Notes under the pieces: model-generated
What the model was told of the DNA's origin: nothing
Seen by the model: only the letters and a program-made list of their open reading frames with translations
Database searches by the model: none
Sequence record: MN882349.1
DNA: 64,000 nt
From: Escherichia phage Ec_Makalu_003
Strand: one strand, 5' to 3'
Position numbers and translations under genes: made by a program
In this document: positions 20,269 through 63,167 of the stretch, piece after piece
Numbering within the stretch: the stretch's first letter is position 1
Layout of the letters: each line of letters starts with the position of its first letter

Positions 20269-20297
20269 AGTATAGGGGATCGCCGATCCCCTGTCAA
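20269..20297 (-). promoter_or_regulatory. early promoter cassette with palindromic spacer GGGGATCGCCGATCCCC
   Basis: TTGACA-17 bp palindrome-TATACT on minus strand. Confidence 0.7.
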
Positions 20298-20304
20298 CAA
20301 CTTT

Positions 20305-20823: not shown

Positions 20824-20824
20824 G

Positions 20825-21157
20825 TTATAGTCTCCTGAATGGATCATCACGTAAATCAATATCTTTTAAGAACTCATCCCATGAATGGCGGATAATGTTC
20901 TTAATTCTCCAGATAAGCGCAGGGATTGAACGCTCTCCCATCTGGAAGTAAGGATCATATGATCCATATGCCCAATATGCTACTACAATTCCACAATCGG
21001 CGCAATAATATTCTATTTCACTTGCTGGCGACCAAAGTCCATCAATATGATCACGGATCTTGCTTTCGATGTTATGGCTATGGCAATCAGGGCAACGGAT
21101 GCAATGACCTTGTTTATCGTAATTTGACGTTAGCGAATACTTAAACAATCTCATCAT
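20825..21157 (-). CDS. Cys/His-rich zinc-finger protein, possible HNH-like nuclease
   Basis: CIRCPDCHSHN...RDHIDG...CADCG: two CxxC pairs flanking His/Asp residues. Confidence 0.45.
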   Translation of the reverse strand: MMRLFKYSLTSNYDKQGHCIRCPDCHSHNIESKIRDHIDGLWSPASEIEYYCADCGIVVAYWAYGSYDPYFQMGERSIPALIWRIKNIIRHSWDEFLKDIDLRDDPFRRL

Positions 21158-21870
21158 AGATCCTTATTGGCTTCAAATACTGCCTTTGCGAATCCTCGCG
21201 GGGTAAGTGACCTGATAGTCTTTGTTCTGGTTCCTTTCCCGCCTAGCTTAGAATGCTGTTTACTGTACCCTTTATTAATCTGCAACGGTTTCTTTTCTGG
21301 CATTATAAAGCCTTGTCCGGTCCATAAGCAAGTCTTTTTCGGGTACATATCACGGGCGGCAATATACTCAGGAAACGTAGGATGCTTATCATCTTCCGGC
21401 AAATAACCGCCATATTCCCACGGATGGAACATGTAATCAGGCTTACGCCACATGCTAGAGATAACGCTTACAGGATTCTCTATCATGTAGGGAACTCCTA
21501 GCCATTCACCCAAATAAGCGGTTATTTTAGCTGCCCTTACATCATGAACTTGAATTAATGGTCCTTGTTCTCGTTTCTTTCGTTCAAAGTGCGCAGCGCC
21601 ACTAACAGCTAAATTGGTGCATGGTGGGAATGCAAAGATAATATCCGGTTTCCCCCATTCAAGGTCCATTGCTCTTTCCAGCCAATTTAAATCAATCCAT
21701 GTGTTTACATATGTAATGTTTGGATGTTCAAATCTGGTATTATATTTTTTGTATGTACCGTGGTCGCCATCGTCAGCATTAAAGCAGATCACCTTATGAC
21801 CTGCTTTAGCCCATTCTAACCCCATTATCCCCGATCCGTCAAAGTTGCAGAATATTAATTTTTGTTTCAT
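21154..21870 (-). CDS. DNA (cytosine-5)-methyltransferase-like protein (compact, 238 aa)
   Basis: Motif I-like LIFCNFDGSGIMG, motif IV-like FAFPPCTNLAVSG (PC catalytic dipeptide), motif VI-like MIENP, C-terminal FAKAVF. Confidence 0.55.
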   Translation of the reverse strand: MKQKLIFCNFDGSGIMGLEWAKAGHKVICFNADDGDHGTYKKYNTRFEHPNITYVNTWIDLNWLERAMDLEWGKPDIIFAFPPCTNLAVSGAAHFERKKREQGPLIQVHDVRAAKITAYLGEWLGVPYMIENPVSVISSMWRKPDYMFHPWEYGGYLPEDDKHPTFPEYIAARDMYPKKTCLWTGQGFIMPEKKPLQINKGYSKQHSKLGGKGTRTKTIRSLTPRGFAKAVFEANKDL

Positions 21871-22112
21871 ATACGCCCCTTTAACCCAACACAGATTTTA
21901 GAAGGTTCTTTGCCGTGCCACATTAAGTAAATTCCGTTAATGCGTCCTTGTTTTGTATATGATTCTTTTCTGATCTTCTTATAGTGTCGTGCTTCCTCAG
22001 CCGATTGTTTAGAATGTCGATCATAAAGGAAGAGGAACAAAGGCCAACCATTAGCGGCCTTAATGCAGTTATTCAAAAATTCCTTATTTCGTTTAATTAA
22101 TTTTCTTTTCAC
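21867..22112 (-). CDS. hypothetical basic protein (81 aa)
   Basis: GTG start overlapping the upstream stop; lysine/arginine rich. Confidence 0.45.
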   Translation of the reverse strand: MKRKLIKRNKEFLNNCIKAANGWPLFLFLYDRHSKQSAEEARHYKKIRKESYTKQGRINGIYLMWHGKEPSKICVGLKGRI

Positions 22113-22360
22113 GCTGCCCCCATTGGTTTGATAGTAACAGAATCTAAAAGACCTTTGTTAGCCAGTTCGCGGCAAGTTTTCAGATCCGCAACTTCCCAGC
22201 CAGCCGCAATAAGGTTATCAATGAGGCTGTTAGCAACTTCTTCGCTCATGAAAGAGCACTGTTTGCCGATGGTGTAGCGTACACGCTGTAATTTCAGTTT
22301 ACGGAAGCCTTTAACGTTCAGGTCTTTAGCGATTTTCTTTGCGGTTTCGATGTTAGCCAT
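22109..22360 (-). CDS. hypothetical protein (83 aa)
   Basis: First gene behind the promoter cassette at 22401-22429. Confidence 0.6.
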   Translation of the reverse strand: MANIETAKKIAKDLNVKGFRKLKLQRVRYTIGKQCSFMSEEVANSLIDNLIAAGWEVADLKTCRELANKGLLDSVTIKPMGAA

Positions 22361-22400
22361 TGTTTGATTCTCCTAAGTGGTATCTCGTCTTGATGGTTGT

Positions 22401-22429
22401 ATTGTAGGGGAGTTATCCTCCCCTGTCAA
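22401..22429 (-). promoter_or_regulatory. early promoter cassette with palindromic spacer GGGGAGGATAACTCCCC
   Basis: TTGACA-17-TACAAT on minus strand. Confidence 0.65.
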
Positions 22430-22443
22430 CACTTTTTATAAAA

Positions 22444-22611
22444 TTATTTGTTAATTTCTGGTGCGTTGCTAGGATAGTAACCTTCTTTAACTCCGAGGTA
22501 TTTTGCAACCATCCCTACAATCTTCTGTGCTACTACAATGTCAAATTTCAGATAATCTTCGCCGTGGGTTTCAATGATATATGCTTCACATGCTGCTTTA
22601 GTCTCGAACAT
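22444..22611 (-). CDS. small hypothetical protein (55 aa), copy 1 of a duplicated gene
   Basis: MFETKAACEAYIIETHGEDYLKFDIVVAQK..., about 87 percent aa identity to 25726-25893. Confidence 0.6.
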   Translation of the reverse strand: MFETKAACEAYIIETHGEDYLKFDIVVAQKIVGMVAKYLGVKEGYYPSNAPEINK

Positions 22612-22644
22612 TTTGATTCTCCTATTTCGTTTCGGTATGTGTGT

Positions 22645-22673
22645 ATTATAGGGGATCTCCCGATCCCCGTCAA
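22645..22673 (-). promoter_or_regulatory. early promoter cassette (TTGACG, GGGGATC-containing spacer, TATAAT)
   Basis: Same cassette type as 20269-20297. Confidence 0.65.
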
Positions 22674-22687
22674 CAACTTTTTTAAAA

Positions 22688-22969
22688 TTATTCGTGATTA
22701 GTTTCGATATTGTGCATTTTGCACCAGTTCAGCCAATCGCCAAGATCTTGATAGTTGATGCTTTTATCTGCTGCCATCGTTTTTGTCTTGATACCCATAT
22801 GTGCGTTATGAGTAAGCATTTTTACAGTGAACTCAATTTTATCGCCTTTAGCTTTAACATCAACCAGTTTGGTCCACTGGCTACCAGCACCGCGAATGTT
22901 CATACCAACGATGTTTCCGATGTATGCTTCTTTGTTGTTCAGGATTTCGGTTGCTTTGATGAATTTCAT
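22688..22969 (-). CDS. hypothetical protein (93 aa)
   Basis: ORF with RBS behind promoter cassette. Confidence 0.6.
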   Translation of the reverse strand: MKFIKATEILNNKEAYIGNIVGMNIRGAGSQWTKLVDVKAKGDKIEFTVKMLTHNAHMGIKTKTMAADKSINYQDLGDWLNWCKMHNIETNHE

Positions 22970-23002
22970 TTTTGATTCTCCAGTTCGTTTCGGTATGGGT
23001 GT

Positions 23003-23031
23003 ATTATGCTATGTTCTTACTTTGGTGTCAA
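23003..23031 (-). promoter_or_regulatory. early promoter cassette (TTGACA-17-CATAAT)
   Basis: Minus-strand consensus elements plus conserved leader. Confidence 0.65.
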
Positions 23032-23039
23032 CAACTTTT

Positions 23040-23309
23040 TTAGATATTTTCAGAAATAAATTTTAAAACTTGACGTAAATGTTTCTCATCTTTGATAGTC
23101 GCCGGAAGTTCTTCTTTTACTTCCTGTGCAAGATAGATATTTCCGTTCCAAGTGAAAGACCCGTCTTCGTTTACGCGATAGCTGAACATCCATTCGCAAT
23201 CATTTTCGATTTCATATACACACAGAAGGGTGTAATCTTCAAAGCTATTGATTTCAAGGTCGAAGCCGTGGCGTTTTGCAAAGTTGGTAGTGGTTTTAGT
23301 CAGTGCCAT
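23040..23309 (-). CDS. hypothetical protein (89 aa)
   Basis: ORF with GGAGAATCAA RBS. Confidence 0.6.
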   Translation of the reverse strand: MALTKTTTNFAKRHGFDLEINSFEDYTLLCVYEIENDCEWMFSYRVNEDGSFTWNGNIYLAQEVKEELPATIKDEKHLRQVLKFISENI

Positions 23310-23349
23310 TGTTTGATTCTCCTAAGTGGTATCTCGTTTCGATGGGTGT

Positions 23350-23378
23350 ATTATGCTATAGGCGTGATCAGGTGTCAA
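23350..23378 (-). promoter_or_regulatory. early promoter cassette (TTGACA-17-CATAAT)
   Basis: Minus-strand consensus elements. Confidence 0.65.
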
Positions 23379-23435
23379 TGCCTTTTTTAAAATTTTATGC
23401 AATAAAAAAGCCGACACTAAGGTCGGCTAATAAAA

Positions 23436-23744
23436 TCATTTAGACAAATAATCATTCAGTGCAATCCGGTCGGCATGTTCCGGCGTTACATCAATCGCAA
23501 TCACTTTAACGCGTGCTTTCTTGCGACCTGGGTTTTCTCGTAACCAGTGCTCATGACCGTGAACATTTTTATACTGCGATGCTTCTTCGAAGGTACGGAT
23601 CGGACCAGGGTAATCAGCGTAAAGGATCTCTAGGTCATCGGTGATGTAAAAATATACGTTGTAATTACTGTTCTCTAGCTTAAGCAGAGACTTTCGGAAC
23701 ATTGGGAGATTTTCGCGGGTAAATTCAAAAGTAATATCTTTCAT
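23436..23744 (-). CDS. small protein, member 1 of HxHW paralog family
   Basis: Start at MKDITFEF with GAGGA RBS; motifs VYFYITDD...HGHEHW...VIAIDV. Confidence 0.6.
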   Translation of the reverse strand: MKDITFEFTRENLPMFRKSLLKLENSNYNVYFYITDDLEILYADYPGPIRTFEEASQYKNVHGHEHWLRENPGRKKARVKVIAIDVTPEHADRIALNDYLSK

Positions 23745-23793
23745 AGTATTATCCTCAATAGTTGGATGAAAAGGGGGCTTAACGCCCCATATA

Positions 23794-24081
23794 TTAAAAC
23801 AGTCCTTCCTGTACACCGTAGTAGAGTTCGTCGCTGATAATTTCATTAATGCGACGGTGTGCATATTCCTGATTTGCGAAGTTGTCAGCAAGTTCTACTT
23901 TAGTTTCACCGTCATGAGTCCATTTAGTGATAACTTTACCATCTGCAAATTTGAAGTTGAACTCTTTAGCTACTGCATCGCGTACCAGACGTGCGAACTT
24001 GTTGTTACGGATTGCATTATCGGTTTCGTGTGCAGCGTGAGCAAATTTGTTAACTTTCAGAGTGATAGTGATGTATGCCAT
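23794..24081 (-). CDS. hypothetical protein (95 aa)
   Basis: ORF with AGGAGAATCAA RBS behind promoter cassette. Confidence 0.6.
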   Translation of the reverse strand: MAYITITLKVNKFAHAAHETDNAIRNNKFARLVRDAVAKEFNFKFADGKVITKWTHDGETKVELADNFANQEYAHRRINEIISDELYYGVQEGLF

Positions 24082-24127
24082 AATTTGATTCTCCTAGTTA
24101 GAAAGTGTATCTCGTTTCGATGGGTGT

Positions 24128-24156
24128 ATTATGCTATACACCCGATCTTATGTCAA
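24128..24156 (-). promoter_or_regulatory. early promoter cassette (TTGACA-17-CATAAT)
   Basis: Minus-strand consensus elements. Confidence 0.65.
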
Positions 24157-24163
24157 CACTTTT

Positions 24164-24442
24164 TTATAAAATAATTTTTTGATATTTTTCTATGATGTTT
24201 GTGTAATCCACATCAACCGCTATCACCGTTGCTTCGAATCCACCGTTTAGCCAATGGCTATGGTCATGATCGTGAAAGAAACCAAGACCAGTACGAAGAC
24301 CTTCTTTATATTCGGCGCGTACATTTAGATCATCATCGATAAACAGATAAAACCATGAATTTTTACTAGGATTGATGATACAACCTTTCAGATTAGGGAG
24401 AATATCACGACTAAGAATAAACTTATCACCTACTTTGAACAT
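24164..24442 (-). CDS. small protein, member 2 of HxHW paralog family
   Basis: Start MFKVGDKF with GAGGA RBS; motifs FYLFIDDD...HDHSHW...VIAVDV. Confidence 0.6.
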   Translation of the reverse strand: MFKVGDKFILSRDILPNLKGCIINPSKNSWFYLFIDDDLNVRAEYKEGLRTGLGFFHDHDHSHWLNGGFEATVIAVDVDYTNIIEKYQKIIL

Positions 24443-24446
24443 AATA

Positions 24447-24767
24447 TTAGTCCTCACTTATAAGGTCAAACCAATTGTTTTTCGCATAATGCTTAATGCG
24501 TGCTTGATCTGCTTCCGCTGGTGATAGATTCCATGCAACCACTACAACTTCTGACGCGTCGTCATCCGTTTCTGATACCCAATGATTGTGATTCATACAG
24601 TTATTTGCGATCGAGTGAGCAAATGATTTCATCACTGGAGACGTATAATCATAGTAACGGATTTTCAGATTTTCATCAACATACAAGTAGATCGTATAAG
24701 GTTTATATTCAGTAACCAGTAACAGACAGTTACGCAATTCTGGGAAAATCTTTTTAGTTAATTTCAT
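24447..24767 (-). CDS. small protein, member 3 of HxHW paralog family
   Basis: Start MKLTKKIF with GAGGAT RBS; motifs IYLYVDEN...NHNHW...VVVVAWN. Confidence 0.55.
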   Translation of the reverse strand: MKLTKKIFPELRNCLLLVTEYKPYTIYLYVDENLKIRYYDYTSPVMKSFAHSIANNCMNHNHWVSETDDDASEVVVVAWNLSPAEADQARIKHYAKNNWFDLISED

Positions 24768-24768
24768 T

Positions 24769-24987
24769 TTATAATCCTCGGTCGCGGCTATAGTACACGG
24801 TACGCCATACAATTTCATGTTTCGTGTCGCTCCAGCACACGATCTCATTTACTCTTAAATCTTTGTTATCAACAAAAGATGAACATTGTGACGCTTCTTT
24901 CATCATTTTATCTGCTGTTTTCTCATCAAATACAGCACAGATTTCTTTATACACTCGATAATCTTTGAATTGACTCTGGATACCCAT
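24769..24987 (-). CDS. small hypothetical protein, tandem paralog of 24947-25204
   Basis: SQFKDYRVYKEICAVFDEKTADKMMKEASQC versus SKFKDYKAYQQILRVYDAEFAEKMMEDASKC. Confidence 0.5.
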   Translation of the reverse strand: MGIQSQFKDYRVYKEICAVFDEKTADKMMKEASQCSSFVDNKDLRVNEIVCWSDTKHEIVWRTVYYSRDRGL

Positions 24988-25204
24988 AATTAACACCATT
25001 CCAACCAATTGTTTTTGAGAAAACGTTTATCCACTGTTGAGTGTAGCATGTTTCTTTCCATGATACAATACGAGTAGAATAATGGTTTTTGTTTCCAGAA
25101 AAGGACGGGCATTTTGATGCATCTTCCATCATCTTTTCGGCGAACTCCGCGTCATATACCCGCAGGATCTGTTGATATGCTTTATAATCTTTAAATTTGC
25201 TCAT
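24947..25204 (-). CDS. small hypothetical protein, tandem paralog of 24769-24987
   Basis: 85 aa ORF; 3' end overlaps the start of its paralog. Confidence 0.5.
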   Translation of the reverse strand: MSKFKDYKAYQQILRVYDAEFAEKMMEDASKCPSFSGNKNHYSTRIVSWKETCYTQQWINVFSKTIGWNGVNYGYPESIQRLSSV

Positions 25205-25469
25205 AATTGTTAACTACCTTATCAGCTTCTTTTATTGTTTTTACATCAACTGCGATAATCCGTAAAGGTTCGTCGAAGGTCCACCAGTGGTCATGAATAT
25301 CAGCTTGTGATTTATCACCAAAGGAATCACGAATATCATTTTTACATTTATAGCTAATATGGCCTTCATAGTCAACATAAAGGTAATTATCGAAAATCGG
25401 AGTTTTTAAGATCATACCGAAAAATCTTTCTTTGTGTGTCTTATCAAGTGTTGCAGTAATTCGCATCAT
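25191..25469 (-). CDS. small protein, member 4 of HxHW paralog family
   Basis: AAGAGGA RBS; motifs YLYVDYEG...IHDHWW...IIAVDV. Confidence 0.6.
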   Translation of the reverse strand: MMRITATLDKTHKERFFGMILKTPIFDNYLYVDYEGHISYKCKNDIRDSFGDKSQADIHDHWWTFDEPLRIIAVDVKTIKEADKVVNNYEQI

Positions 25470-25481
25470 AATATATTCCTC

Positions 25482-25661
25482 TTAGAAAGGGATGGTCATT
25501 TCTTGAGCTTGTACATTCTCGTTAGGATTAAACTTCATCCAACCGATATTGTCTACCAGCATATGTACATTTTTATCATATCCTACGTGAGTAGTCAACA
25601 CTAAATGTGCTTTACCTTCAACGATGATTTCCATGTACTTCTGAACTTCGATAGCTTTCAT
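25482..25661 (-). CDS. small hypothetical protein (59 aa)
   Basis: ATG with GGAGAATCAA RBS behind promoter cassette 25694-25722. Confidence 0.5.
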   Translation of the reverse strand: MKAIEVQKYMEIIVEGKAHLVLTTHVGYDKNVHMLVDNIGWMKFNPNENVQAQEMTIPF

Positions 25662-25693
25662 TTTGATTCTCCGTTTGTTGTCTTGATGGGAGT

Positions 25694-25722
25694 ATCTTAC
25701 TACTCCCTTTAATCATTGTCAA
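25694..25722 (-). promoter_or_regulatory. early promoter cassette (TTGACA-17-TAAGAT)
   Basis: Minus-strand elements; spacer contains GGGAGTAG...ACTCCC-like palindrome. Confidence 0.6.
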
Positions 25723-25725
25723 CTA

Positions 25726-25893
25726 TTATTTGTTAATTTCTGGTGCGTTGCTCGGATAGTAACCTTCTTTAACACCCAGATATTTTGCAACCATTCCGGT
25801 GATCTTCTGTGCTACTACGATATCGAATTTCAGGTAGTCTTCACCGTGGTTTGCTACAATGTATGCTTCGCATTCTGCTTTAGTCTGGAACAT
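25726..25893 (-). CDS. small hypothetical protein (55 aa), copy 2 of a duplicated gene
   Basis: MFQTKAECEAYIVANHGEDYLKFDIVVAQK...; about 85 percent nt identity with 22444-22611. Confidence 0.6.
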   Translation of the reverse strand: MFQTKAECEAYIVANHGEDYLKFDIVVAQKITGMVAKYLGVKEGYYPSNAPEINK

Positions 25894-25927
25894 TTTTGAT
25901 TCTCCTATATCTCGTTGGTATGTGTGC

Positions 25928-25956
25928 ATTATAGGGGATCACCGATCCCCTGTCAA
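25928..25956 (-). promoter_or_regulatory. early promoter cassette with palindromic spacer GGGGATCACCGATCCCC
   Basis: TTGACA-17-TATAAT on minus strand. Confidence 0.7.
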
Positions 25957-25961
25957 CAACT

Positions 25962-26255
25962 TTATAATGCTTTATACGCGTATTTCATAAATTTGTCTGC
26001 CACTTCATTGGCATGTTCAGATTCTACGCCTGATTCGAGAACAATAGCTAGGTCGGTTTCGTCATTCCCGCCGTACCAATGATTTGATGTTCGATTTTTT
26101 TCAATTGGAAATTGGTCACTTTTATCTGTGCGACAAAATACATCTAAATGCTCGTCGATGTAAAAGATCCAATCTTCATAAAGAATAACGGTATTAGCAA
26201 GATTTTTATTGCCTTCAACGAAAGGTTCCGCGACAAATAGCTTAGTTTGTTCCAT
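25962..26255 (-). CDS. small protein, member 5 of HxHW paralog family (divergent)
   Basis: Start MEQTKLF with GAGGAA RBS; motifs IFYIDEHLD...SNHWYG...AIVLESGV. Confidence 0.5.
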   Translation of the reverse strand: MEQTKLFVAEPFVEGNKNLANTVILYEDWIFYIDEHLDVFCRTDKSDQFPIEKNRTSNHWYGGNDETDLAIVLESGVESEHANEVADKFMKYAYKAL

Positions 26256-26271
26256 AGTAATTTCCTCAAAA

Positions 26272-26463
26272 TTATACAGTTTCGTAAACTTCCCAATGTT
26301 CAGCGCCAACACGCTTAACGAAAAGGTTTTCTTTGATGTTATTCATAAACGTCTGGATGGATTTAATGCGGTTTGAAGGTTTCCATTCTTCGTTGGCATT
26401 GCGTCGATACATCATAACATTACCAGTTCGCTTATATTCAGCAACCATTTTAAGACCACACAT
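26272..26463 (-). CDS. hypothetical protein (63 aa)
   Basis: ATG with GAGGATAAT RBS. Confidence 0.55.
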   Translation of the reverse strand: MCGLKMVAEYKRTGNVMMYRRNANEEWKPSNRIKSIQTFMNNIKENLFVKRVGAEHWEVYETV

Positions 26464-26520
26464 AATATTATCCTCAATTTGTGGGAGAGTATTACCCCTC
26501 CCAATGATTGTTATGTTATA

Positions 26521-26841
26521 TCACACAAAATGGCGTGTCAATGCTTCTTTTGCGGTTCCGCTAAGACTTTCAATCTCGCCTGGCATAACATCAACCGCCA
26601 GAACTTCTACAACATCTTCGGACCCTAACCAGTGAGTATGGCCTTTGTAGAACTTGATAACCAGACCACCTTCCTCGTCCCATTTAACGCTATCGCTAGC
26701 CCACCACACATCACCGTCGATAAAGTTGATGTAAAGCACACTACGCCACATTGAATTAATTACTTTCAATACTGCGCCTTTCATCTCTTCCACGGTATGG
26801 TCTTCCATTTTGAAGACCTCACCTACCTGAACTTTTGCCAT
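26521..26841 (-). CDS. small protein, member 6 of HxHW paralog family
   Basis: Motifs LYINFIDGD...GHTHW...VLAVDV. Confidence 0.6.
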   Translation of the reverse strand: MAKVQVGEVFKMEDHTVEEMKGAVLKVINSMWRSVLYINFIDGDVWWASDSVKWDEEGGLVIKFYKGHTHWLGSEDVVEVLAVDVMPGEIESLSGTAKEALTRHFV

Positions 26842-26858
26842 TTAGTCACCTCTCTTTA

Positions 26859-27038
26859 TTACATAACAATCACGCCAGCCGTTGAAAGTTGATGTTTCAA
26901 CTGAGCATTTTCTGCTACTGTCAAATCAATGATTTCTTGTGACGCTGCAATCATATAACCATTGGTGATATTGTTTTGCATCAGTTCAATGGTTTCTTCG
27001 TTGTAGCGGATTTTAGCGATGATTTCGTTGAAGTTCAT
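26859..27038 (-). CDS. small hypothetical protein (59 aa)
   Basis: Start MNFNEIIAK with AGGAGAATCAA RBS; the track ORF start lies in the translated leader. Confidence 0.55.
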   Translation of the reverse strand: MNFNEIIAKIRYNEETIELMQNNITNGYMIAASQEIIDLTVAENAQLKHQLSTAGVIVM

Positions 27039-27072
27039 AATTGATTCTCCTAGTTCGTTTCGGTATGTGTGC

Positions 27073-27101
27073 AGTATAGGGGATCGCCGATCCCCTGTCA
27101 A
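27073..27101 (-). promoter_or_regulatory. early promoter cassette with palindromic spacer GGGGATCGCCGATCCCC
   Basis: TTGACA-17-TATACT on minus strand; near-identical to the cassette at 20269-20297. Confidence 0.7.
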
Positions 27102-27114
27102 CAACTTTTTTGAA

Positions 27115-27591
27115 TTATTTTTCTTGATGCTCGCGCTCGTACTTTTCGAAATAAAATTCTACTGGCTGATCGTGGATTGAAAGCAAGCCAAAGCGTTTAG
27201 CCGCACGTAATCCCATGTTACGTTGAATGTACTTCTGGAAGTTCTCGCGTATACACTTACGCCAGTATTCTAAGCCCATACAGCTTTTGTAAAGATTGCA
27301 TTGCACACAAGCCGGATTCATGTTGTCAAGTATATCGTGCTCCGGTTTATGCATTCCTACAACCTTATACTTCCACGATCCATCATCATTACGGGCAATT
27401 CGTCCATTTTCATCATAGACTACTTTTGAGCGTCGCAATACTGGTTTGATGTGGTCTGCGTGCCAGCGATCCCCTAGTTCCTCGCCACAATAGGCACAAC
27501 GCCCACCGTATTTCATTTTCAGGATCTGGCGTTGCTCTTTCTTTGACAATTTTTTAGGTTTAGGGGCTTTCGCCCCTTCATTATCACACAT
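27115..27591 (-). CDS. HNH endonuclease
   Basis: CAYCG...HADHIKP...NMNPACVQCN: canonical HNH CxxC / H-x-DH / N / CxxC arrangement; start overlaps the ligase stop. Confidence 0.8.
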   Translation of the reverse strand: MCDNEGAKAPKPKKLSKKEQRQILKMKYGGRCAYCGEELGDRWHADHIKPVLRRSKVVYDENGRIARNDDGSWKYKVVGMHKPEHDILDNMNPACVQCNLYKSCMGLEYWRKCIRENFQKYIQRNMGLRAAKRFGLLSIHDQPVEFYFEKYEREHQEK

Positions 27592-34896: not shown

Positions 34897-34938
34897 CTTG
34901 ATACTCCTTAGTAAGTTAGTTTCGTTTCGATGGGGGGT

Positions 34939-34967
34939 ATATTACTACTCCCGTGATATGCTGTCAA
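34939..34967 (-). promoter_or_regulatory. early promoter cassette (TTGACA-17-TAATAT)
   Basis: Minus-strand elements, GGGAGTAG palindromic spacer. Confidence 0.6.
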
Positions 34968-34975
34968 TTGCTTTT

Positions 34976-35125
34976 TTATGCAACCGCAAACATCAACATT
35001 TGAACATTCTTGGCTGTCTGGCTTTCAAAGTTCTGACATTCTTTGATAATGTCCTCTACTTTCTCGCCAGAGATCTCCGCGTAAGTTTCGATTGCCATTT
35101 TCAGTACCGCGTCAAAGTTGTTCAT
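34976..35125 (-). CDS. small hypothetical protein (49 aa)
   Basis: ATG with AAGGAGAACCAA RBS behind promoter cassette. Confidence 0.4.
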   Translation of the reverse strand: MNNFDAVLKMAIETYAEISGEKVEDIIKECQNFESQTAKNVQMLMFAVA

Positions 35126-35163
35126 TTGGTTCTCCTTAAAGTGTATTTCGTTTCGATGGGGGT

Positions 35164-35192
35164 ATATTACTACCCCCGTTATTCAGTGTCAA
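35164..35192 (-). promoter_or_regulatory. early promoter cassette (TTGACA-17-TAATAT)
   Basis: Minus-strand elements. Confidence 0.6.
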
Positions 35193-35411
35193 CTACTTTT
35201 TAATGACAAGTTCGAATTTTGCTACCTTGCGTCCTCGTTTATTGAAAGCAACCCACGGACGGTTTTCAATGTAGAACAATTCTTCACCAATAATGAATAT
35301 TGGCTGATTGTAAAGGCGACCCATCAGGTCACGTTGGCGAATAGTAGTAGATTCGTATACTTCGCCTACTACAAAGTGTTTGCTGATAGAGTCGGTGCAA
35401 GTAAATTTCAT
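35193..35411 (-). CDS. hypothetical protein (72 aa)
   Basis: ORF with AGGAGAATCAA RBS. Confidence 0.55.
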   Translation of the reverse strand: MKFTCTDSISKHFVVGEVYESTTIRQRDLMGRLYNQPIFIIGEELFYIENRPWVAFNKRGRKVAKFELVIKK

Positions 35412-35444
35412 TTTGATTCTCCTTTGTTTCGTTTCGATGGGAGT

Positions 35445-35473
35445 ATCTTACAACTCCCAATATTCAGTGTCAA
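35445..35473 (-). promoter_or_regulatory. early promoter cassette (TTGACA-17-TAAGAT)
   Basis: Minus-strand elements. Confidence 0.6.
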
Positions 35474-35480
35474 CTGCTTT

Positions 35481-35699
35481 TTACTTGTTGTATTCATTCC
35501 ACCAACGAGTAAGTTTATCGATTATTTTTGTGTTTCTATCCAATTTCTCCCACCGTTTACGCGGGTTTATAAGCCGGAATAGGTAGGGTGTACTTGTTAA
35601 GTGAACTCGGTCAAAATAATGGTTGATAAGCTGGCATTCAATTCTCAATTTCATCTTTTTACGATGAAAATATGCAATCACTTGTTCTTCTGTTTCCAT
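35481..35699 (-). CDS. hypothetical protein (72 aa)
   Basis: ORF with GGAGGAAC RBS. Confidence 0.55.
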   Translation of the reverse strand: METEEQVIAYFHRKKMKLRIECQLINHYFDRVHLTSTPYLFRLINPRKRWEKLDRNTKIIDKLTRWWNEYNK

Positions 35700-35723
35700 A
35701 TGTTCCTCCGTTTCGATGCGTGC

Positions 35724-35752
35724 ATTATGCTATACCCCGGTCCGATTGTCAA
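35724..35752 (-). promoter_or_regulatory. early promoter cassette (TTGACA-17-CATAAT)
   Basis: Minus-strand elements. Confidence 0.6.
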
Positions 35753-35799
35753 CACCCAATAACAAAAAAGTCGCCACTATGGGCGACTTAGGTTAAACA

Positions 35800-36276
35800 T
35801 TAATCATGACCGTGGTTGGCAAGATCCGCTCGTGTCTTATCTTTGTGATTTCCTACGTCAAAGACACGATAGCCGTTTTCTCGGAGAACTTTAATCACTT
35901 CTGGGTTATCCTCAAAGACTCCCACCACTTCATCTTTATCAAATGATTTAATTACCTCTAATTTGATGTGATAGTCTTTACGGGAATCGGTACGGCCTCT
36001 CATAAAGATTTTATCAAAACACACCCCGTTAGAAATTAACCAATCAATTGTTTCCATGTAAGCATGTGAACTTCGTCCGGTGAGGATGTAAATCAAATGC
36101 CCGTTGTCGGAAAGAGCATTAATAACACGAATTACATCGTAAATGGGGGAATCTCCCCCACATGCCTTGTTATATTCGATCCATGACTCGACTTTATCAA
36201 GATTTTCGGTTGGCATCTTTGCTAGTCGATGCGTTGGATCTGTGATCGTAAAATCTAAATCGACAAAATATATCAT
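35800..36276 (-). CDS. HAD-superfamily phosphatase (putative nucleotidase)
   Basis: N-terminal FVDLDFTI (DxDxT) motif; 158 aa directly downstream of nrdB. Confidence 0.6.
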   Translation of the reverse strand: MIYFVDLDFTITDPTHRLAKMPTENLDKVESWIEYNKACGGDSPIYDVIRVINALSDNGHLIYILTGRSSHAYMETIDWLISNGVCFDKIFMRGRTDSRKDYHIKLEVIKSFDKDEVVGVFEDNPEVIKVLRENGYRVFDVGNHKDKTRADLANHGHD

Positions 36277-51442: not shown

Positions 51443-52582
51443 ATGACACAAGATATAGAATTACGCAACACTGGAATTAGGTTTGCGCATTTCGATGAGG
51501 ACTCCGCGACATTTACCAGCATTTCAGAAAACAACTCTGTGATGTATAAGCTGGAAGTGCGCGGATCTAATGCGGATTCTACCAAACCAGCAAGGATTAG
51601 ATTTAATGGAGTGGAGATCGTTGGCACTGGCTATGAAAATGGCCTAAATTTTAAAGTTCTTACTCCAACTGGACAACTACACGAAGAAAAGGTATTCTAT
51701 GGTCGCGGTGCTGTTTTGGCAATGCGTGATTATCTTTCTTTGCTGAAAGGTGACTATATCATTGCGATGGCAACGCATGGAGAATTGTTTGCAGATCCGG
51801 TAAGTGATGTTGTATTTTCTAAGCTGGGATCTGTATCATTCCCGAATCACATTTTGTTACAGCAAATGCCTCGTGTATCCTATGCAGCAATTTATTCTAC
51901 GAAAATGGGTAAAATTGTGTGCGAAGGTATGCAAGCGACCCACGGGGAAGGACAAGATTCATCTATACAAATTGAGAAAGTCTATGATACTATAGATGAT
52001 CTTGCTATAACAGGAACACCACAACGATTTTTAGATTATCCGGTTGAGTATGTTAGCGAAGATGCCGAACATTTCGAGCTAATACAATGGCCTCATGATG
52101 AGATCAGCTCACCACTTGAAGATTTTAACATAAAGGCAGGTGACAAACTATCAATATCTTTTGAATTGTTCCGTGATAGTGCCGCAGCCGCAGCCAACGT
52201 AACAGCGCGTTTCTATCACAACTACTTCACCGATGGACAATATCAAACTGGTGTTCGATACAATGCCAGCAAAAAAGACCAATGGGAAAAGTTTGAAGCC
52301 GTCTATACCGTACCGGAAGGAGTTGATAGTGTAGTAACTGGTTGTATCAGATATCCAACCAACTCCAATGAAGGTATTGTTAAAATTAGAAACATACTAA
52401 TAACGCCGATCAGTGGAGTCGTCAAAACTACTGGTCCTACTTCATTTGGCGTTAATGGTGTTAGAACAACTCATATTCAGGATAACGGTGATTTTACTAA
52501 CCCTGTAATGAGTCTTCTTAAACTACCTAGAGATAATAAACACATCACATCCAACAACTTTAAAGAGTTCGATGTTGATTAA
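51443..52582 (+). CDS. 35: long tail fibre hinge protein gp35
   Basis: 379 aa, size and position of T4 gp35. Confidence 0.8.
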   Translation: MTQDIELRNTGIRFAHFDEDSATFTSISENNSVMYKLEVRGSNADSTKPARIRFNGVEIVGTGYENGLNFKVLTPTGQLHEEKVFYGRGAVLAMRDYLSLLKGDYIIAMATHGELFADPVSDVVFSKLGSVSFPNHILLQQMPRVSYAAIYSTKMGKIVCEGMQATHGEGQDSSIQIEKVYDTIDDLAITGTPQRFLDYPVEYVSEDAEHFELIQWPHDEISSPLEDFNIKAGDKLSISFELFRDSAAAAANVTARFYHNYFTDGQYQTGVRYNASKKDQWEKFEAVYTVPEGVDSVVTGCIRYPTNSNEGIVKIRNILITPISGVVKTTGPTSFGVNGVRTTHIQDNGDFTNPVMSLLKLPRDNKHITSNNFKEFDVD

Positions 52583-52592
52583 CATTTTTAAC

Positions 52593-52624
52593 AAGCCGAT
52601 CCATGTGGTCGGCTTTATTTTTAT
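52593..52624 (+). terminator. rho-independent terminator after gene 35
   Basis: AGCCGATC...GGTCGGCT hairpin then T-run; same hairpin reused inverted at 62735-62762. Confidence 0.65.
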
Positions 52625-52630
52625 ACAGTT

Positions 52631-52688
52631 GGTTAAATTGTAACCAAAACGAAGAAAGATCTTTAGAATAATAGAAAATTTGTTTCGG
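52631..52688 (+). repeat. copy c of the roughly 60 nt intergenic element (inverted relative to copies a and b)
   Basis: GGTTAAATTGTAACCAAAACGAAGAAAGATCTTTAGAATAATAGAAAATTTGTTTCGG. Confidence 0.6.
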
Positions 52689-52743
52689 TTAAAAATTAGA
52701 CAGTGCCGTAGGCACGTCGCGAAGCGATATTTTGTTAACATTC

Positions 52744-52751
52744 TATAAATA
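52744..52751 (+). promoter_or_regulatory. late promoter TATAAATA for gene 36
   Basis: Exact TATAAATA 34 bp upstream of the ATG at 52785. Confidence 0.7.
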
Positions 52752-52784
52752 CTCGGAACTATAACTAATTTTTGAGGTTACTTT

Positions 52785-54275
52785 ATGGCAGATTTGAAAT
52801 ATGGATCTACTGTAGGTGGATCTCCCATTTGGACGCAAGGAAACTTGACGATCCAGCCAGCGGGGGATCAGCTTTTCTACAAAGGTCATAAAATCTATAC
52901 CGCTTTTGATAGACCTTCGGCTACCGATTTTGATGCTGTTAGTGCATCCGAAGGTGGCACATTTCAAAAGCAAGTTCATTTCGAGGAAGGTTTAAGCGTA
53001 GGTAGCGCATCGGCTGGAGAAACCAAAAAGAATGGTATCTTTAAAGGTCAGAGTGACGCTGCTAATTTTGACGGCGTAAGCTGGGGTTTGCATTCATGGA
53101 AGTCAATCGGCTTTGTTAATGCCCGTGATGGCGTTATTATGGCGTATATTGACACCACAACGGGCGAATTTAAGTCTAAAGGGACTATCGAAGGGACAAC
53201 CATTAAAGACACAGGTCAACGCGTCTATAGCCCTGTTAATAAACCAACGAATAATGATTTAGATTTGGTGTCTCGTCGCGGTGATACCCTCACAGGAACA
53301 TATAATTTAAACACTGTCACTGTTAAACTATCGGTTGATTCGAAATTAATTGCAAGGGAACGTGATTTAATTAATTTTGATGCGACTAAGATCTATTATG
53401 GTAACGTTCTTGATACGTTGGTATTCCGAAGTAAAGATGAGCCTACCATTTTTGTTAATGGCAAAGAAGGTCGTTTTTATCACACCAACAATAAACCAAC
53501 TAAAGCCGATGTGGGACTAGGCAATGTCACCAATGATGCACAGGTTAAACGTGCTGGTGATATTATGGAAGGTAACTTGCAAGCGCCTAGAATGTTGGCG
53601 ACAAACGATCCTGCTGGTCCGAATGAATTGGTTCGTTTGAGCTACTTTGAGAGAAAATCAATGGTAGCAAATCCAACCATCATAGGAAACGTTGATTGGA
53701 ACACTCTTATTAATCGCGGTATCTATCGTGTGGAAAATGCGGGATCAGGTACTAATAAACCGTCTGATAGCTATTATAACGGCGTTTTGATGGTATACCG
53801 ACCAGAAGATGCGGTCGGTACTCGTCGAATTGTTCAGGTGTATTATCCTGAATCTATTGACCATCCGATGTGCTGGCGTTCTTGTTCTAATGAATCGTGG
53901 ACTGCATGGAACTATGTAGATCACCGTAAATTAGCCGATATTCGCTATGTTAACGTAACTGGTGATACCATGACAGGACCGTTAACTGTTCCGGCTGCAA
54001 ATGGCGTTAGAACGGCTAGAGGTGCATATAATGGTGATAACTACTATGCTGGGTTAAATAGTGCCGATGGCACGGCTATGATTCACCGTATCAGCGATAT
54101 TAAAGCCACCGAAAAATTGGGGATCACCCACGACTCAAAGGTCGTGTTTTTCCGTTCTAGAAACAATACTCAAACCGTGGATCGCTATCAGCTTTATCAT
54201 GAAGGTAATAAACCTACTCCGGCTGATGTTGGTGCGGTTCCACTTAATGCGGTGATTGATTTTGGTACTTTCTAA
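52785..54275 (+). CDS. 36: long tail fibre distal connector gp36 (enlarged)
   Basis: N-terminus MADLKYGSTVGGSPIWTQGN matches T4 gp36; 496 aa versus 221 in T4. Confidence 0.85.
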   Translation: MADLKYGSTVGGSPIWTQGNLTIQPAGDQLFYKGHKIYTAFDRPSATDFDAVSASEGGTFQKQVHFEEGLSVGSASAGETKKNGIFKGQSDAANFDGVSWGLHSWKSIGFVNARDGVIMAYIDTTTGEFKSKGTIEGTTIKDTGQRVYSPVNKPTNNDLDLVSRRGDTLTGTYNLNTVTVKLSVDSKLIARERDLINFDATKIYYGNVLDTLVFRSKDEPTIFVNGKEGRFYHTNNKPTKADVGLGNVTNDAQVKRAGDIMEGNLQAPRMLATNDPAGPNELVRLSYFERKSMVANPTIIGNVDWNTLINRGIYRVENAGSGTNKPSDSYYNGVLMVYRPEDAVGTRRIVQVYYPESIDHPMCWRSCSNESWTAWNYVDHRKLADIRYVNVTGDTMTGPLTVPAANGVRTARGAYNGDNYYAGLNSADGTAMIHRISDIKATEKLGITHDSKVVFFRSRNNTQTVDRYQLYHEGNKPTPADVGAVPLNAVIDFGTF

Positions 54276-60858: not shown

Positions 60859-60892
60859 AATATATTCCTCAATGTCTTGTCTTGATGGGAGT

Positions 60893-60921
60893 ATCTTACT
60901 ACTCCCTTAATCCGGTGTCAA
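60893..60921 (-). promoter_or_regulatory. early promoter cassette (TTGACA-17-TAAGAT)
   Basis: Minus-strand elements upstream of the DUF1311 gene. Confidence 0.6.
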
Positions 60922-60928
60922 CTACTTT

Positions 60929-61084
60929 TTAAATTTCTTCTACAGTAAAGTCTTCAATGTTGTTGTGCTCGGAGAACGTTGCCAGACCAGCATTCCATGC
61001 ATCATCCTCAGAGAAGAATACACCGTAACGTTCATATCCTTTAGCGCCTTCAAATTTAATCATTAATTTGTGAGTATGTTTCAT
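60929..61084 (-). CDS. small hypothetical protein (51 aa)
   Basis: ATG with GGAGAATCAA RBS behind a GGGGATCACCGATCCCC-spacer promoter cassette (about 61110-61146). Confidence 0.4.
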   Translation of the reverse strand: MKHTHKLMIKFEGAKGYERYGVFFSEDDAWNAGLATFSEHNNIEDFTVEEI

Positions 61085-61153
61085 TTTGATTCTCCATCGT
61101 TGTCTTGATGAGTTTAGTATAGGGGATCACCGATCCCCTGTCAACAACTATTT

Positions 61154-61366
61154 TTAATTTTTACCCACGCGTAAATTAATGCGCATTTTCTGCATAGCCA
61201 TGATCTGGTTTACTGCTTCTTCTTTACGCTCTTTCGTGATAATGTGACCAGATTCCGCAAACGCTCCCGCAACTTCTTCTACGATCTCGCGAACTTGAGA
61301 ACGTCCAAAGATGCGATTTCCTTCGTAGCTCATAAACTCGGTTACTACTTGCTCAATAGATTTCAT
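61154..61366 (-). CDS. hypothetical protein (70 aa)
   Basis: ORF with AGGAGAATCA RBS behind promoter cassette. Confidence 0.55.
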   Translation of the reverse strand: MKSIEQVVTEFMSYEGNRIFGRSQVREIVEEVAGAFAESGHIITKERKEEAVNQIMAMQKMRINLRVGKN

Positions 61367-61435
61367 GTGATTCTCCTTCTTTCGTTTCGGTGTGGGAGTA
61401 TGTTAATACTCCCGTTTCTTTACATCAACCAGTTT

Positions 61436-61678
61436 TTAGAAATTTTTCGCTTCTTCTTCGGTCATCATAACCGCGCATTCGTGCATAACTTTGAAAACCG
61501 GATCAATCATGTCGAATGCCTCGCGAGACAATTTACGAGAAGCGATTTTGATTGCTTCAACGTCTTCTACTACAGGAACAAAAACAGTTTTCAGTTCATC
61601 GAGCACAGCAGCTTCTTTTTCATTCAGGAAGATTCCAGCGTCGTACAGTGCAACTTCGATAACATTAACTTTAACCAT
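61436..61678 (-). CDS. hypothetical protein (80 aa)
   Basis: Start MVKVNVIEV with GGAGGAAAT RBS behind TTGACG-17-TATTAT cassette. Confidence 0.55.
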   Translation of the reverse strand: MVKVNVIEVALYDAGIFLNEKEAAVLDELKTVFVPVVEDVEAIKIASRKLSREAFDMIDPVFKVMHECAVMMTEEEAKNF

Positions 61679-61741
61679 TTTTATTTCCTCCAGTTCGTTT
61701 CGGTATGTGAGTATAATACTACCGATGACCTTTGGCGTCAA

Positions 61742-61942
61742 CTAGTTTTTGTTATTTTCGTGAAAATTTTTCGTCGCCTCATGTGCTTTTCGCTGGGCTT
61801 CTTGTTGTGCTTGCTGGCGTGCTGCCTCTTGTGAAGCCATAACGGAAGCATTTGCAGCAGTTACAGCCGCTACCATCGCTGCGGTATTAGCATTTACAGT
61901 ACATGCACTAGCCAGCAAAGCAATTGCAATCATTTTCTTCAT
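61742..61942 (-). CDS. small secreted protein (66 aa)
   Basis: N-terminal signal peptide MKKMIAIALLASACTVNA, Ala/Gln-rich mature part. Confidence 0.5.
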   Translation of the reverse strand: MKKMIAIALLASACTVNANTAAMVAAVTAANASVMASQEAARQQAQQEAQRKAHEATKNFHENNKN

Positions 61943-62109
61943 AGTTTCCCCTTTAGGTTATCTTCGACCTTCATCCATTCCGCGTATTCTTGCGCAGCTA
62001 CTTTCGGATTTAGTCCGTCTTCGTACATTGCATCGAGTAATTCTTCGTCGGTGGGCTTATACCCTAGATAAGCCTCCACCTGATTTTTCCAAATTTTATA
62101 CCAGTTCAT
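61939..62109 (-). CDS. small hypothetical protein (56 aa)
   Basis: Start MNWYKIWKNQ (ATG at 62109); track ORF begins at an upstream TTG. Confidence 0.45.
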   Translation of the reverse strand: MNWYKIWKNQVEAYLGYKPTDEELLDAMYEDGLNPKVAAQEYAEWMKVEDNLKGKL

Positions 62110-62113
62110 ATTA

Positions 62114-62386
62114 TCACCAATCAAGAGCGCGTGTCTCTGCGTCTTCCCATGCTTGATCCATTACAGCCTTAAAAACATACTCTAAGGTATCATCTTTAGA
62201 GAATCCGAAGACTTTAGACGGAATATCTTCGATTGCCACTCCCGCAACTTCTGCATTACGCGCTTGGCAATAATGCAACTCTAAGTTATCGAGATAGCGA
62301 CCGCCTAATTTCTCCATATCGTCCCAACATTTCCAATAACCGACTTTATCGGCAATTGCTAACACTTTGCTGTTTTTGTTGCTCAT
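62114..62386 (-). CDS. hypothetical protein (90 aa)
   Basis: ORF with AAGGAGAATCAA RBS behind promoter cassette. Confidence 0.55.
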   Translation of the reverse strand: MSNKNSKVLAIADKVGYWKCWDDMEKLGGRYLDNLELHYCQARNAEVAGVAIEDIPSKVFGFSKDDTLEYVFKAVMDQAWEDAETRALDW

Positions 62387-62453
62387 CTTTGATTCTCCTT
62401 TTGTTTGGTGTGGGGAGTATTTTACTACTCCCTTGTTCTGGTGTCAATAGACT

Positions 62454-62660
62454 TTATTTGATTATTTCAAATTTTGCTACCGGATCACCATTTCGTTTGG
62501 TTGCAGTAAGTTGTTGCTTGTCAAAGTAAAACCAAATATAGTCACCATGAACTACATCAAATGTATTTCCGCTATTGTCCGTGAATGCATCAACATCATA
62601 ATCACACCCGACACTAAAGCTATAATTGATGTGGTCGGTTTCAATGCAACGTACTTTCAT
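62454..62660 (-). CDS. hypothetical protein (68 aa)
   Basis: Start MKVRCIETDH with GGAGAATCAA RBS. Confidence 0.5.
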   Translation of the reverse strand: MKVRCIETDHINYSFSVGCDYDVDAFTDNSGNTFDVVHGDYIWFYFDKQQLTATKRNGDPVAKFEIIK

Positions 62661-62734
62661 TTTTTGATTCTCCTGTTGTTTCAGTTTGGGTGTATTATGC
62701 AATGTTTGATTATGGGAGTCAACAACTTTTCAAA

Positions 62735-62762
62735 TAAAAAAGCCGACCACAAGGATCGGCTT
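62735..62762 (-). terminator. rho-independent terminator downstream of 62772-63167
   Basis: AGCCGATC...GGTCGGCT hairpin then U-run on minus strand. Confidence 0.6.
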
Positions 62763-62771
62763 AATAATCAA

Positions 62772-63167
62772 TTACTTACTAAATTTCTTTTTGGCTTCGT
62801 CTACTGCATGAGATGCTAGTACCGCTGCCGCATGTGCACTTTTATCTGTGTTACAGAGAACACCCAGATAAACATCACGCCAAAGTTTAATCATCTCGTA
62901 GATCATATCAATATCATTTTCTTGTTTGTTGGCGATGCTATTCGTCGTTATCTGGTAAGGCAACGGTTTGATCTGTACTGGTTCCGCCATCGGGCTAATC
63001 GGTTTCGGATCGGTCATAATAGGTTCTGTTGTCGGTGATGTTTTCCATACGCCATTATCCCACGGTTTAATCGTTGTATCGTACAGTTTATAAGGATTTT
63101 TGTCTGGATTAACCATCCATGCATGATGATTACCCAAACCATTTGCAGTGATGCGTCGTTCAGTCAT
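62772..63167 (-). CDS. hypothetical protein (131 aa)
   Basis: ORF with GAGAGGAAAT RBS. Confidence 0.55.
   Translation of the reverse strand: MTERRITANGLGNHHAWMVNPDKNPYKLYDTTIKPWDNGVWKTSPTTEPIMTDPKPISPMAEPVQIKPLPYQITTNSIANKQENDIDMIYEMIKLWRDVYLGVLCNTDKSAHAAAVLASHAVDEAKKKFSK

Follow-up and report, generated by a model that had tools for sequence, protein, structure and literature searches.

What occupies the 202 bp between genes 35 and 36 of Escherichia phage Ec_Makalu_003, and what does it do there? We addressed this question in a stretch of 64,000 nucleotides of this phage (sequence record MN882349.1), hereafter called the window. Its source is a Krischvirus, that is, an RB49-like T4-type phage, and the region shows 98-99% identity to 58 Krischvirus phage records (RB49, phi1, JSE and their relatives). 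We show that the gene 35/36 spacer is a mosaic of an intrinsic terminator, one conserved non-coding module of ~100 bp and the gene 36 late promoter. The terminator and the promoter are ordinary parts, already known from T4. The inserted module belongs to the repeated intergenic cassettes of phage genomes and appears to be undescribed so far: neither Rfam nor the literature that we searched contains it. From its sequence, we tentatively propose that it may be a DNA-level architectural or boundary element bound by a host protein, probably Fis, and related to the promoter-early stem-loop (PeSL) cassettes.

A repeated module with invariant blocks and fixed geometry

We searched the window using nhmmer with a profile built from its three copies of the module. 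The copy in the gene 35/36 spacer (c3) was recovered on the minus strand at 52620-52706 (E = 8e-20), together with two plus-strand copies at 2895-2984 (c2; E = 4e-19) and 2745-2834 (c1; E = 2e-18). The next-best match in the window had an E-value of 0.66, and repeat finding recovered the same copy pairs. The same type of profile search in the RB49 genome (164 kb), which we assembled from four pieces, gave exactly four copies at three loci (62804-62882, 97535-97622, 97684-97772 and 149991-150079; E <= 2e-14, next match E = 0.22). An earlier note on this DNA had described the element at 52631-52688 as an inverted third copy. The repeat is real, and c3 is indeed inverted relative to c1 and c2 and the third copy within the window, but the RB49 genome has a fourth (c4). 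In addition, the last 13 bp of the element had been missed, and the homologous core extends over 52631-52701.

The core is 71 bp long and consists of a 15-mer, a 41-bp spacer and a second 15-mer, the two 15-mers being held at a fixed centre-to-centre distance of 56 bp. In c3, the first 15-mer, GGTTAAATTGTAACC (52631-52645), has the form G-N13-C, is AT-rich with a 5-7 bp palindrome, and is a near match to a Fis-type pattern; the second, GGTTAAAAATTAGAC (52687-52701), matches GNNYAWWWWWTRNNC exactly. The intervening 41 bp (52646-52686) are marked by the nearly invariant blocks CAAAACGAAGA (52645-52655) and ATCTTTAGAA (52659-52668) and by a small palindrome, AAGA-N4-TCTT (52652-52663), whose centre is variable. 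This spacer measures 41 bp in c1, c2, c3 and the prophage homologue described below, and 40 bp in c4. We aligned 34 distinct module sequences and found that similarity between lineages begins and ends at the outer edges of the 15-mers. Positions -7, -3, +3, +4 and +7 of the 15-mers are invariant across all copies and variants, while the centre and positions 5-6 from the centre vary. Six matches to GNNYAWWWWWTRNNC occur in the window, where 4.3 are expected by chance, and five of them are ends of the three element copies; five of the six element 15-mers in the window match it exactly, the one at 52631-52645 having a single C in its centre. Overall identity among the five diverged copy types is 73-79%. 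Despite this divergence, none of the 11 positions of TCTTCGTTTTG varies in any of the five types; TTCTAAAGAT is conserved as well, except for one inserted T in c1.

The core ranks with the most AT-rich and most readily melted DNA of the genome. When all 100-bp windows of the 164-kb RB49 genome are ordered by nearest-neighbour energies, c4, c1 and c2 come out as the three lowest in stability, and c3 falls in the top 0.2% of RB49 70-bp windows for low helix stability.

Next, we examined the settings of the four copies. In the window, c1 occupies 2703-2823 on the plus strand, with a hairpin TCCGC-GTA-GCGGA (2703-2715) and a core at 2753-2823; c2 occupies 2852-2972 on the same strand, with hairpins at 2852-2862 and 2863-2875, an extra hairpin at 2877-2890 and a core at 2902-2972. 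These two copies stand upstream of a DprA-like gene, between it and a hypothetical gene downstream of gene 24, whereas c4 of RB49 is located between gene 3 and a small opposite-strand open reading frame (ORF), p130, which adjoins gene 2. All three RB49 loci carry the module in one orientation with respect to their flanking genes: the upstream gene comes first, then the core and the hairpins, and then the region where the downstream gene starts. At the c3 and c1/c2 loci, the upstream gene has an intrinsic terminator behind it. Different promoters stand downstream: TATAAATA precedes gene 36 and AATAAATA precedes gene 3, while the DprA-like gene has no TATAAATA late box upstream, only a sub-threshold TTGTAT-17-TATGAT. 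The distance between module and downstream promoter also varies between loci. None of the 58 Krischvirus records lacks the gene 35/36 locus or the DprA-like locus, both of which were queried in full; the prophage query matched the gene 3 copy in these 58 records too. We considered a miniature inverted-repeat transposable element and rejected it: no target-site duplication flanks any copy, though the module ends resemble each other, and there is no presence/absence polymorphism at the two loci queried in full in the 58 records.

Several features adjoin c4 in particular. Near-consensus late boxes AATAAATA lie on both sides of it (RB49 62896-62936 and 62760-62783), facing outward toward gene 3 and p130. 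In a metagenomic Krischvirus (L041, 2148-2681), a 177-residue ORF with its own TTGACA-17-TAGATT promoter stands between gene 3 and the c4 hairpins, and the insertion junction is exactly at the hairpin edge; read by eye, this ORF encodes a putative HNH-type endonuclease. The records OP114734 (pEJ01) and MW748999 (Skers) end at the same nucleotide, TATACA (equivalent to RB49 ~62900), and pEJ01, beginning with GTAATAAATA, and MN850615 (kvi) both start 36 nt before p130. These record ends adjoin c4 and lie within a small AT-rich palindrome; they may be due to a convention taken over from one record to the next, or else mark a genuine end or a break in coverage.

Paired mini-hairpins that probably form in DNA

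Paired hairpins had been placed at about 52700-52730 in the earlier note, and we located them precisely at 52703-52715 (hairpin 2, GTGCC-GTA-GGCAC, with a 3-nt loop closed by C-G) and 52716-52728 (hairpin 1, (G)TCGC-GAA-GCGA(T), which contains GCGAAGC and also has a 3-nt loop). Both gave fold z-scores of about -2.5, whether folded as RNA or as DNA. Hairpin 2 retains 40 of 40 Watson-Crick pairs over eight variants representing four unrelated stem sequences, and in hairpin 1 one G-C pair of RB49 is C-G in the prophage (ATCCC-TTC-GGGAT). No G-T pair occurs in either hairpin. The closing pair around the 3-nt loop is always C-G, and the loop is often GAA or GTA; in phage Skers, the loop of hairpin 2 is GGA. 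The genome has few GC hairpins with 3-nt loops, 18 in all, and four of these are at element loci. DNA of the sequence GCGAAGC forms a mini-hairpin of unusual stability, which has been reported in the origins of single-stranded phages.

In the window (52703-52715), hairpin 2 has the loop GTA; on the same strand of RB49 (150074-150086), its loop is TAC, the exact reverse complement. The same flip is seen independently at c4, between RB49 (62797-62809) and pEJ01 (L121, ~170-182). Loop inversion is a signature of template switching within a hairpin, and the flips of hairpin 2 look like a recurrent inversion of this kind. Together with the lack of wobble pairs, these inversions point to the hairpins forming in DNA.

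A homologue in a temperate prophage family

We also searched beyond the T4-type phages by scanning IMG/VR with AAGATNNNTCTTCGTTTTG and filtering the matches with the module profile. About 30 contigs (~20-45 kb, from bacterial isolate genomes) gave a full-length match with E-values from 5e-11 to 2e-8. They represent a little-characterised Escherichia coli prophage that is inserted in ycdX, carries a large serine recombinase and is present in 56-58 of 5426 complete E. coli genomes; about a dozen metagenome contigs have it as well. Among isolated phages, no close relative of its large terminase was found, and the best match is 43%. In a blastn comparison of the prophage region with all phages, only the Krischvirus copies were matched, at 78-79% identity over 81 nt. 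A one-genome-per-species scan for a third lineage gave only chance matches, the metagenome scan and phage blastn returned only the same two lineages, and no plasmid matched the module.

The prophage has a single copy of the module, in a 1.3-kb non-coding region between divergent genes. Its flanks are unrelated to those in RB49, yet two GC hairpins with 3-nt loops again precede the core (ATCCC-TTC-GGGAT and GCAACC-TTC-GGTTGC; in a subgroup the second is GACGCTC-AGG-GAGCGTC). About nine TTTTTGCCCCTGAAA repeats form an array ~430 bp away from the copy, which also adjoins a CTAG-rich stretch. In the prophage locus L028, this region (4790-4990 and 5150-5370) comprises the iteron array, several GC hairpins and then at least seven CTAG-containing operator-like motifs; the iteron region matched no plasmid replicon or isolated phage.

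Other genes also link the two lineages. The prophage tail fibre (L098, 22312-25001) shows 43% identity over 918 residues to RB49 gp37 (151717-154656), and three small ORFs at the other prophage end match RB49 p190, p194 and part of the inh region (44-68% identity). Given this tail fibre and these ORFs, the prophage and RB49 lineages have exchanged DNA. The genes shared by RB49 and the prophage are this tail fibre and the three small ORFs, which have no Pfam hit, and no common DNA-binding protein was found among them. p130 is unrelated to the prophage gene downstream of the element, and the neighbouring proteins were uninformative in Pfam and PHROGs.

A candidate host-protein-bound element

Fixed geometry, invariant blocks, hairpins with only Watson-Crick pairs and with loop flips, meltability and sharing between phages of the same host together favour a role at the DNA level. 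A partner supplied by the host would explain how the module is kept in both a lytic T4-like phage and a temperate prophage between which we found no common DNA-binding protein. High-affinity sites of the nucleoid protein Fis have been described as G-N13-C with an AT-rich centre and pyrimidine-purine steps 3-4 positions from the centre, with no T at +4 and no G at -8 (PMC4784862). The 15-mers of the element agree with this description and are predicted Fis sites. Their flanks also fit it: position -8 is T, and the right-hand site has A at +8 together with T/A tracts (PMC4784862). Moreover, the positions that vary among the 15-mers are those that Fis does not read. By eye, no site for IHF, sigma-28 or sigma-54, and no DnaA box, Ter, Fur site or GATC cluster, was conserved across the copies.

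Based on these features, we suggest the following picture. The module is inserted between a terminator and a promoter that in T4 work without it, and it would act as DNA rather than as structured RNA. The host nucleoid protein Fis is the most likely ligand of the two predicted 15-mer sites, and the bent AT-rich core may help the hairpins beside it to extrude. The result would be a nucleoprotein boundary or architectural element between transcription units, which would play no part in regulating the late promoter.

Several points weigh against this proposal. The attribution to Fis was drawn solely from a sequence pattern, and this pattern is loose, with 4.3 chance matches per window, while the copies that carry it are homologous and not independent. 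The prophage 15-mers fit it less well. Fis does not account for the most conserved block of the module (TTCTAAAGAT...TCTTCGTTTTG), which is outside the 15-mer cores, and we know of no Fis function in T4-type phages. That all three RB49 loci share one orientation hints that the role depends on the strand and is possibly exercised at the RNA level. Finally, the gene 35/36 spacer is 93-99% identical among Krischviruses, compared with 98-99% for the neighbouring coding sequence.

The predicted Fis sites recall known architectural arrangements. The Hin and Gin enhancers, the sites upstream of rRNA promoters and oriC likewise have 15-bp G...C cores with an AT-rich centre, pyrimidine-purine steps 3-4 positions from it and A/T tracts beside them, and two sites a fixed distance apart. 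In the module, by contrast, the predicted sites are 56 bp apart, there is no invertase gene, and the position relative to a promoter is not fixed. Recombinational enhancers of DNA invertases have two Fis sites 48 bp apart in or beside the invertase gene; we rejected this identity for the module, given its spacing of 56 rather than 48 bp and the lack of an annotated invertase in RB49. The BIME/RIP elements of E. coli, in which REP palindromes flank a nucleoid-protein site, are similarly extragenic, follow gene ends and combine GC palindromes with an AT-rich protein-binding segment. They differ in that the hairpins of the module are much shorter, its carrier is a phage genome, and its putative partner is Fis rather than IHF.

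Relationship to the PeSL cassettes

PeSL cassettes have been described in RB49 and phi1 (Arbiol et al. 2010, PMC2839356; Comeau et al. 2014, PMC4122927), where they are reported to mediate modular shuffling. In the window, dozens of minus-strand early promoter cassettes at 20000-27130, 34900-35800 and 60860-62770 correspond to these published PeSLs; their layout is GTTGACA, a GC stem-loop in the spacer and TATAAT, followed by ACACCCAT-A(C/T)CGAAACGA. The hyperplastic region also contains a 172-nt direct repeat (22443-22614 and 25725-25896, 86% identity), which is apparently the start of paralogous small genes behind PeSLs.

The leader of these cassettes recurs in the module. In the window, nine matches to the motif ACCRAAACRA stand against 0.8 expected; seven are in PeSL leaders and two, which converge, in c3. 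The first of the two in c3, ACCAAAACGA (52643-52652, plus strand), is a 10-mer that otherwise marks the start of PeSL early transcripts, and the second, ACCGAAACAA (52680-52689, minus strand), faces it. In RB49, A(T/C)C(G/A)AAAC(G/A)A is found 29 times: about 18 of these are at a fixed place just after GTTGACA-N17-TATAAT, and six are at ends of the four modules, with one at each end of c3 and c4. PeSLs carry the 10-mer A(C/T)CRAAACRA 14 nt after the stem-loop; the minus-strand 10-mer of c3 stands 13 nt after hairpin 2, and in this respect c3 has the leader of a PeSL. It does not have the promoter: no promoter-like site was found in 52400-52900, and the equivalents of the -35 and -10 hexamers are degenerate (GCGACG and TGTCTA/TCTAAT, with the 13-nt stem-loop). 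With the leader motif at PeSL-like spacing but degenerate hexamers and no promoter, the module looks like a relation of the PeSLs without being one. Both are repeated intergenic cassettes of the same phage, with a GC stem-loop followed by the 10-mer 13-14 nt on, and both are exchangeable and stand at module boundaries beside terminators. The module differs in having no TTGACA/TATAAT, two leader motifs facing each other across an AT-rich core, and paired mini-hairpins with 3-nt loops; it lies in conserved late-gene regions rather than hyperplastic ones, and it also occurs in a prophage. It is absent from both PeSL papers (PMC2839356, PMC4122927). We suggest that the PeSL early promoter cassettes of RB49 are the probable origin of the module, and that recombination between the two is still possible.

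Terminator, late promoter and the question of coupling

In the window, the spacer is bounded by gene 35 (51443-52582), with gene 34 on its far side, and by gene 36 (52785-54275), with gene 37 beyond. The terminator that the earlier note assigned to gene 35 is present at 52593-52625 on the plus strand. Its 9-bp stem (52593-52615, five GC pairs) begins 11 nt past the gene 35 stop and is followed by TATTTTTATA, as in an intrinsic terminator, and its RNA fold has an energy of -12.6 kcal/mol (z = -3.9). An inverted twin, 86% complementary to 52588-52622, is found 10 kb away at 62733-62767, beside a PeSL, so that terminator modules, too, are common to different loci. The T4-type late promoter box TATAAATA was likewise found where the note had put it, at 52744-52751 on the plus strand, 41 nt before the gene 36 ATG at 52785, and the Shine-Dalgarno sequence GAGG is at 52774-52777. 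This position, on the coding strand and tens of nucleotides before a late gene, is that of a predicted late promoter. The window contains seven TATAAATA boxes, which is not above chance (mean 5.8); those at 47633 (gene 34) and 52744 (gene 36) lie ~35-40 nt upstream of the gene starts on the correct strand, and three further boxes appear, by position, to precede genes 24, uvsW and 51.

From sequence, it is a well-supported prediction that the gene 34-35 transcript terminates here and that transcription re-initiates from the late promoter of gene 36. The corresponding junction in T4 shares the intrinsic terminator and TATAAATA but is only 62 bp long, with a GGGAACCC-type hairpin and T-run followed directly by TATAAATA and nothing in between, so that the RB49-type spacer has ~110 extra bp between terminator and late promoter. 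Since T4 has this arrangement without the module, the element and the paired hairpins are not needed for it.

The earlier note went further and suggested that terminator, element, hairpins and late promoter could act as one regulatory unit that links termination after gene 35 to re-initiation for expression of the tail-fibre genes 36 and 37. The parts do stand in the order described, the c4 hairpins, too, have a near-consensus late box, AATAAATA, behind them and ahead of gene 3, and TTGTTAA lies between hairpin and box in both c3 and c4. However, in T4 the terminator and late promoter are adjacent and the module is absent, c1 and c2 precede a gene without a late box, the prophage copy stands in an unrelated context, and the distance from module to box is unequal in c3 and c4. 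In addition, T4 late promoters require just the TATAAATA box with gp55, gp33 and the gp45 clamp, and upstream sites are unnecessary. The module is thus tied neither to late promoters nor to tail fibres, and nothing supports a coupling device specific to tail fibres; we regard such a function as very unlikely.

Alternative explanations

The module might be a recombination relic, namely a PeSL derivative with a dead promoter that spread at the leader motif, was exchanged with the prophage and is tolerated in spacers without having a function. The leader 10-mers at both ends of c3 and c4, placed 13 nt from a GC stem-loop as against 14 in PeSLs, the degenerate -35 and -10 equivalents and the reported shuffling of PeSLs (PMC2839356, PMC4122927) are all consistent with this, as are the exchange between RB49 and the prophage that the tail fibre (43%, 918 residues) and the three small ORFs reveal, and the putative HNH endonuclease gene inserted at the hairpin edge in one relative. 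A relic would not be expected to keep TCTTCGTTTTG invariant at 11 of 11 positions across five copy types of 73-79% overall identity, to hold its spacing fixed, to maintain its hairpins by compensatory changes even where the sequence has been replaced, or to show no presence/absence polymorphism at the two fully queried loci in 58 Krischvirus records, and we consider this explanation unlikely. The module could also initiate replication or recombination in a phage that we take to lack MotA-type middle promoters, as has been reported for RB49. The core would then be an unwinding element, the hairpins would extrude, and the four modules would mark origins or strand-invasion sites. In favour of this are the ranking of c4, c1 and c2 as the least stable 100-bp windows of RB49, the ~430 bp that separate the prophage copy from about nine iterons (TTTTTGCCCCTGAAA), GCGAAGC in hairpin 1 with its link to single-stranded phage origins, and the loop inversions, which indicate that hairpins form in DNA. 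The easily melted AT-rich segment in a late-gene region is shared with T4 oriF and oriG, which combine a promoter with a DNA unwinding element, whereas the module has no adjacent promoter. Its loci lie in late-gene regions, two of the three within 2 kb of a switch of the transcribed strand, and T4 oriE, oriF and oriG have likewise been described in late-gene regions near a strand switch (PMC3016281). Against it, we found no promoter that could prime an R-loop and no iterons near the RB49 copies, which thus do not resemble iteron-type origins; the T4 origins have no common motif (PMC3016281), and T4 oriG is not a stability minimum in its 12-kb region. The prophage element ranks just third or fourth among the least stable segments, and the prophage iteron region matches no plasmid replicon. 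On balance, initiation at these sites seems improbable. The fuller version, in which the four modules would be initiation sites of MotA-less T4-type phages that combine an unwinding element, extrudable hairpins and host Fis, and would be portable beside prophage iterons, is distinctly improbable.

A role at the RNA level would instead make the module a small RNA or a processing or stability signal, read from the strand co-directional with the genes and ending at the hairpins, or else an anti-leader RNA from the opposite strand. The anti-leader version draws on the complementarity of the nearly invariant UCUUCGUUUUG(G/A)U to the leader A(U/C)CGAAACGA of about 18 early mRNAs, with which it would pair. 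The uniform orientation at the three RB49 loci also fits an RNA, as do the T-rich stretches that follow each c3 hairpin on one strand and were flagged as terminator-like, a promoter-like TGGACA-18-TAAATT in c2 that reads into the core, and one A-T to G-T to G-C series in the right-hand palindrome. However, no promoter is found at a position conserved across the copies; the search for sigma-70 promoters gave none at c3 and one site among c1 and c2, in c2. We also examined a candidate, TTGRTN-N16-18 -10, at the right-hand end and rejected it, as its spacing varies through indels among the prophage variants. The T-runs after the hairpins are absent in the prophage, and a 10-bp long-range stem of c3 is not kept there. 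RNAalifold on 25 distinct cores gave almost no consensus structure on either strand (~ -1.5 kcal/mol), fold z-scores were only -1.3 to -1.8, and the hairpins lack G-U pairs. A search with Rfam 15 found nothing in the window at the gathering threshold and, in E-value mode at the prophage locus L028, one chance hit outside the element. Taken together, these results make an RNA-level function rather improbable, and our tentative preference remains with a DNA element that may be bound by Fis.

Implications

What appears to be new here is a non-coding module with invariant blocks and fixed geometry that is common to lytic Krischviruses and to a temperate E. coli prophage family; in the phage collection searched, this family has no cultured relative. 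With the module linked to the PeSL leader motif, the published account of cassette shuffling now reaches into conserved late-gene regions. If the modules are indeed sites of nucleoid-protein binding or of initiation, they would provide a handle on replication or genome architecture in MotA-less T4-type phages, and they would illustrate how lytic and temperate phages can exchange a cis-acting DNA module.

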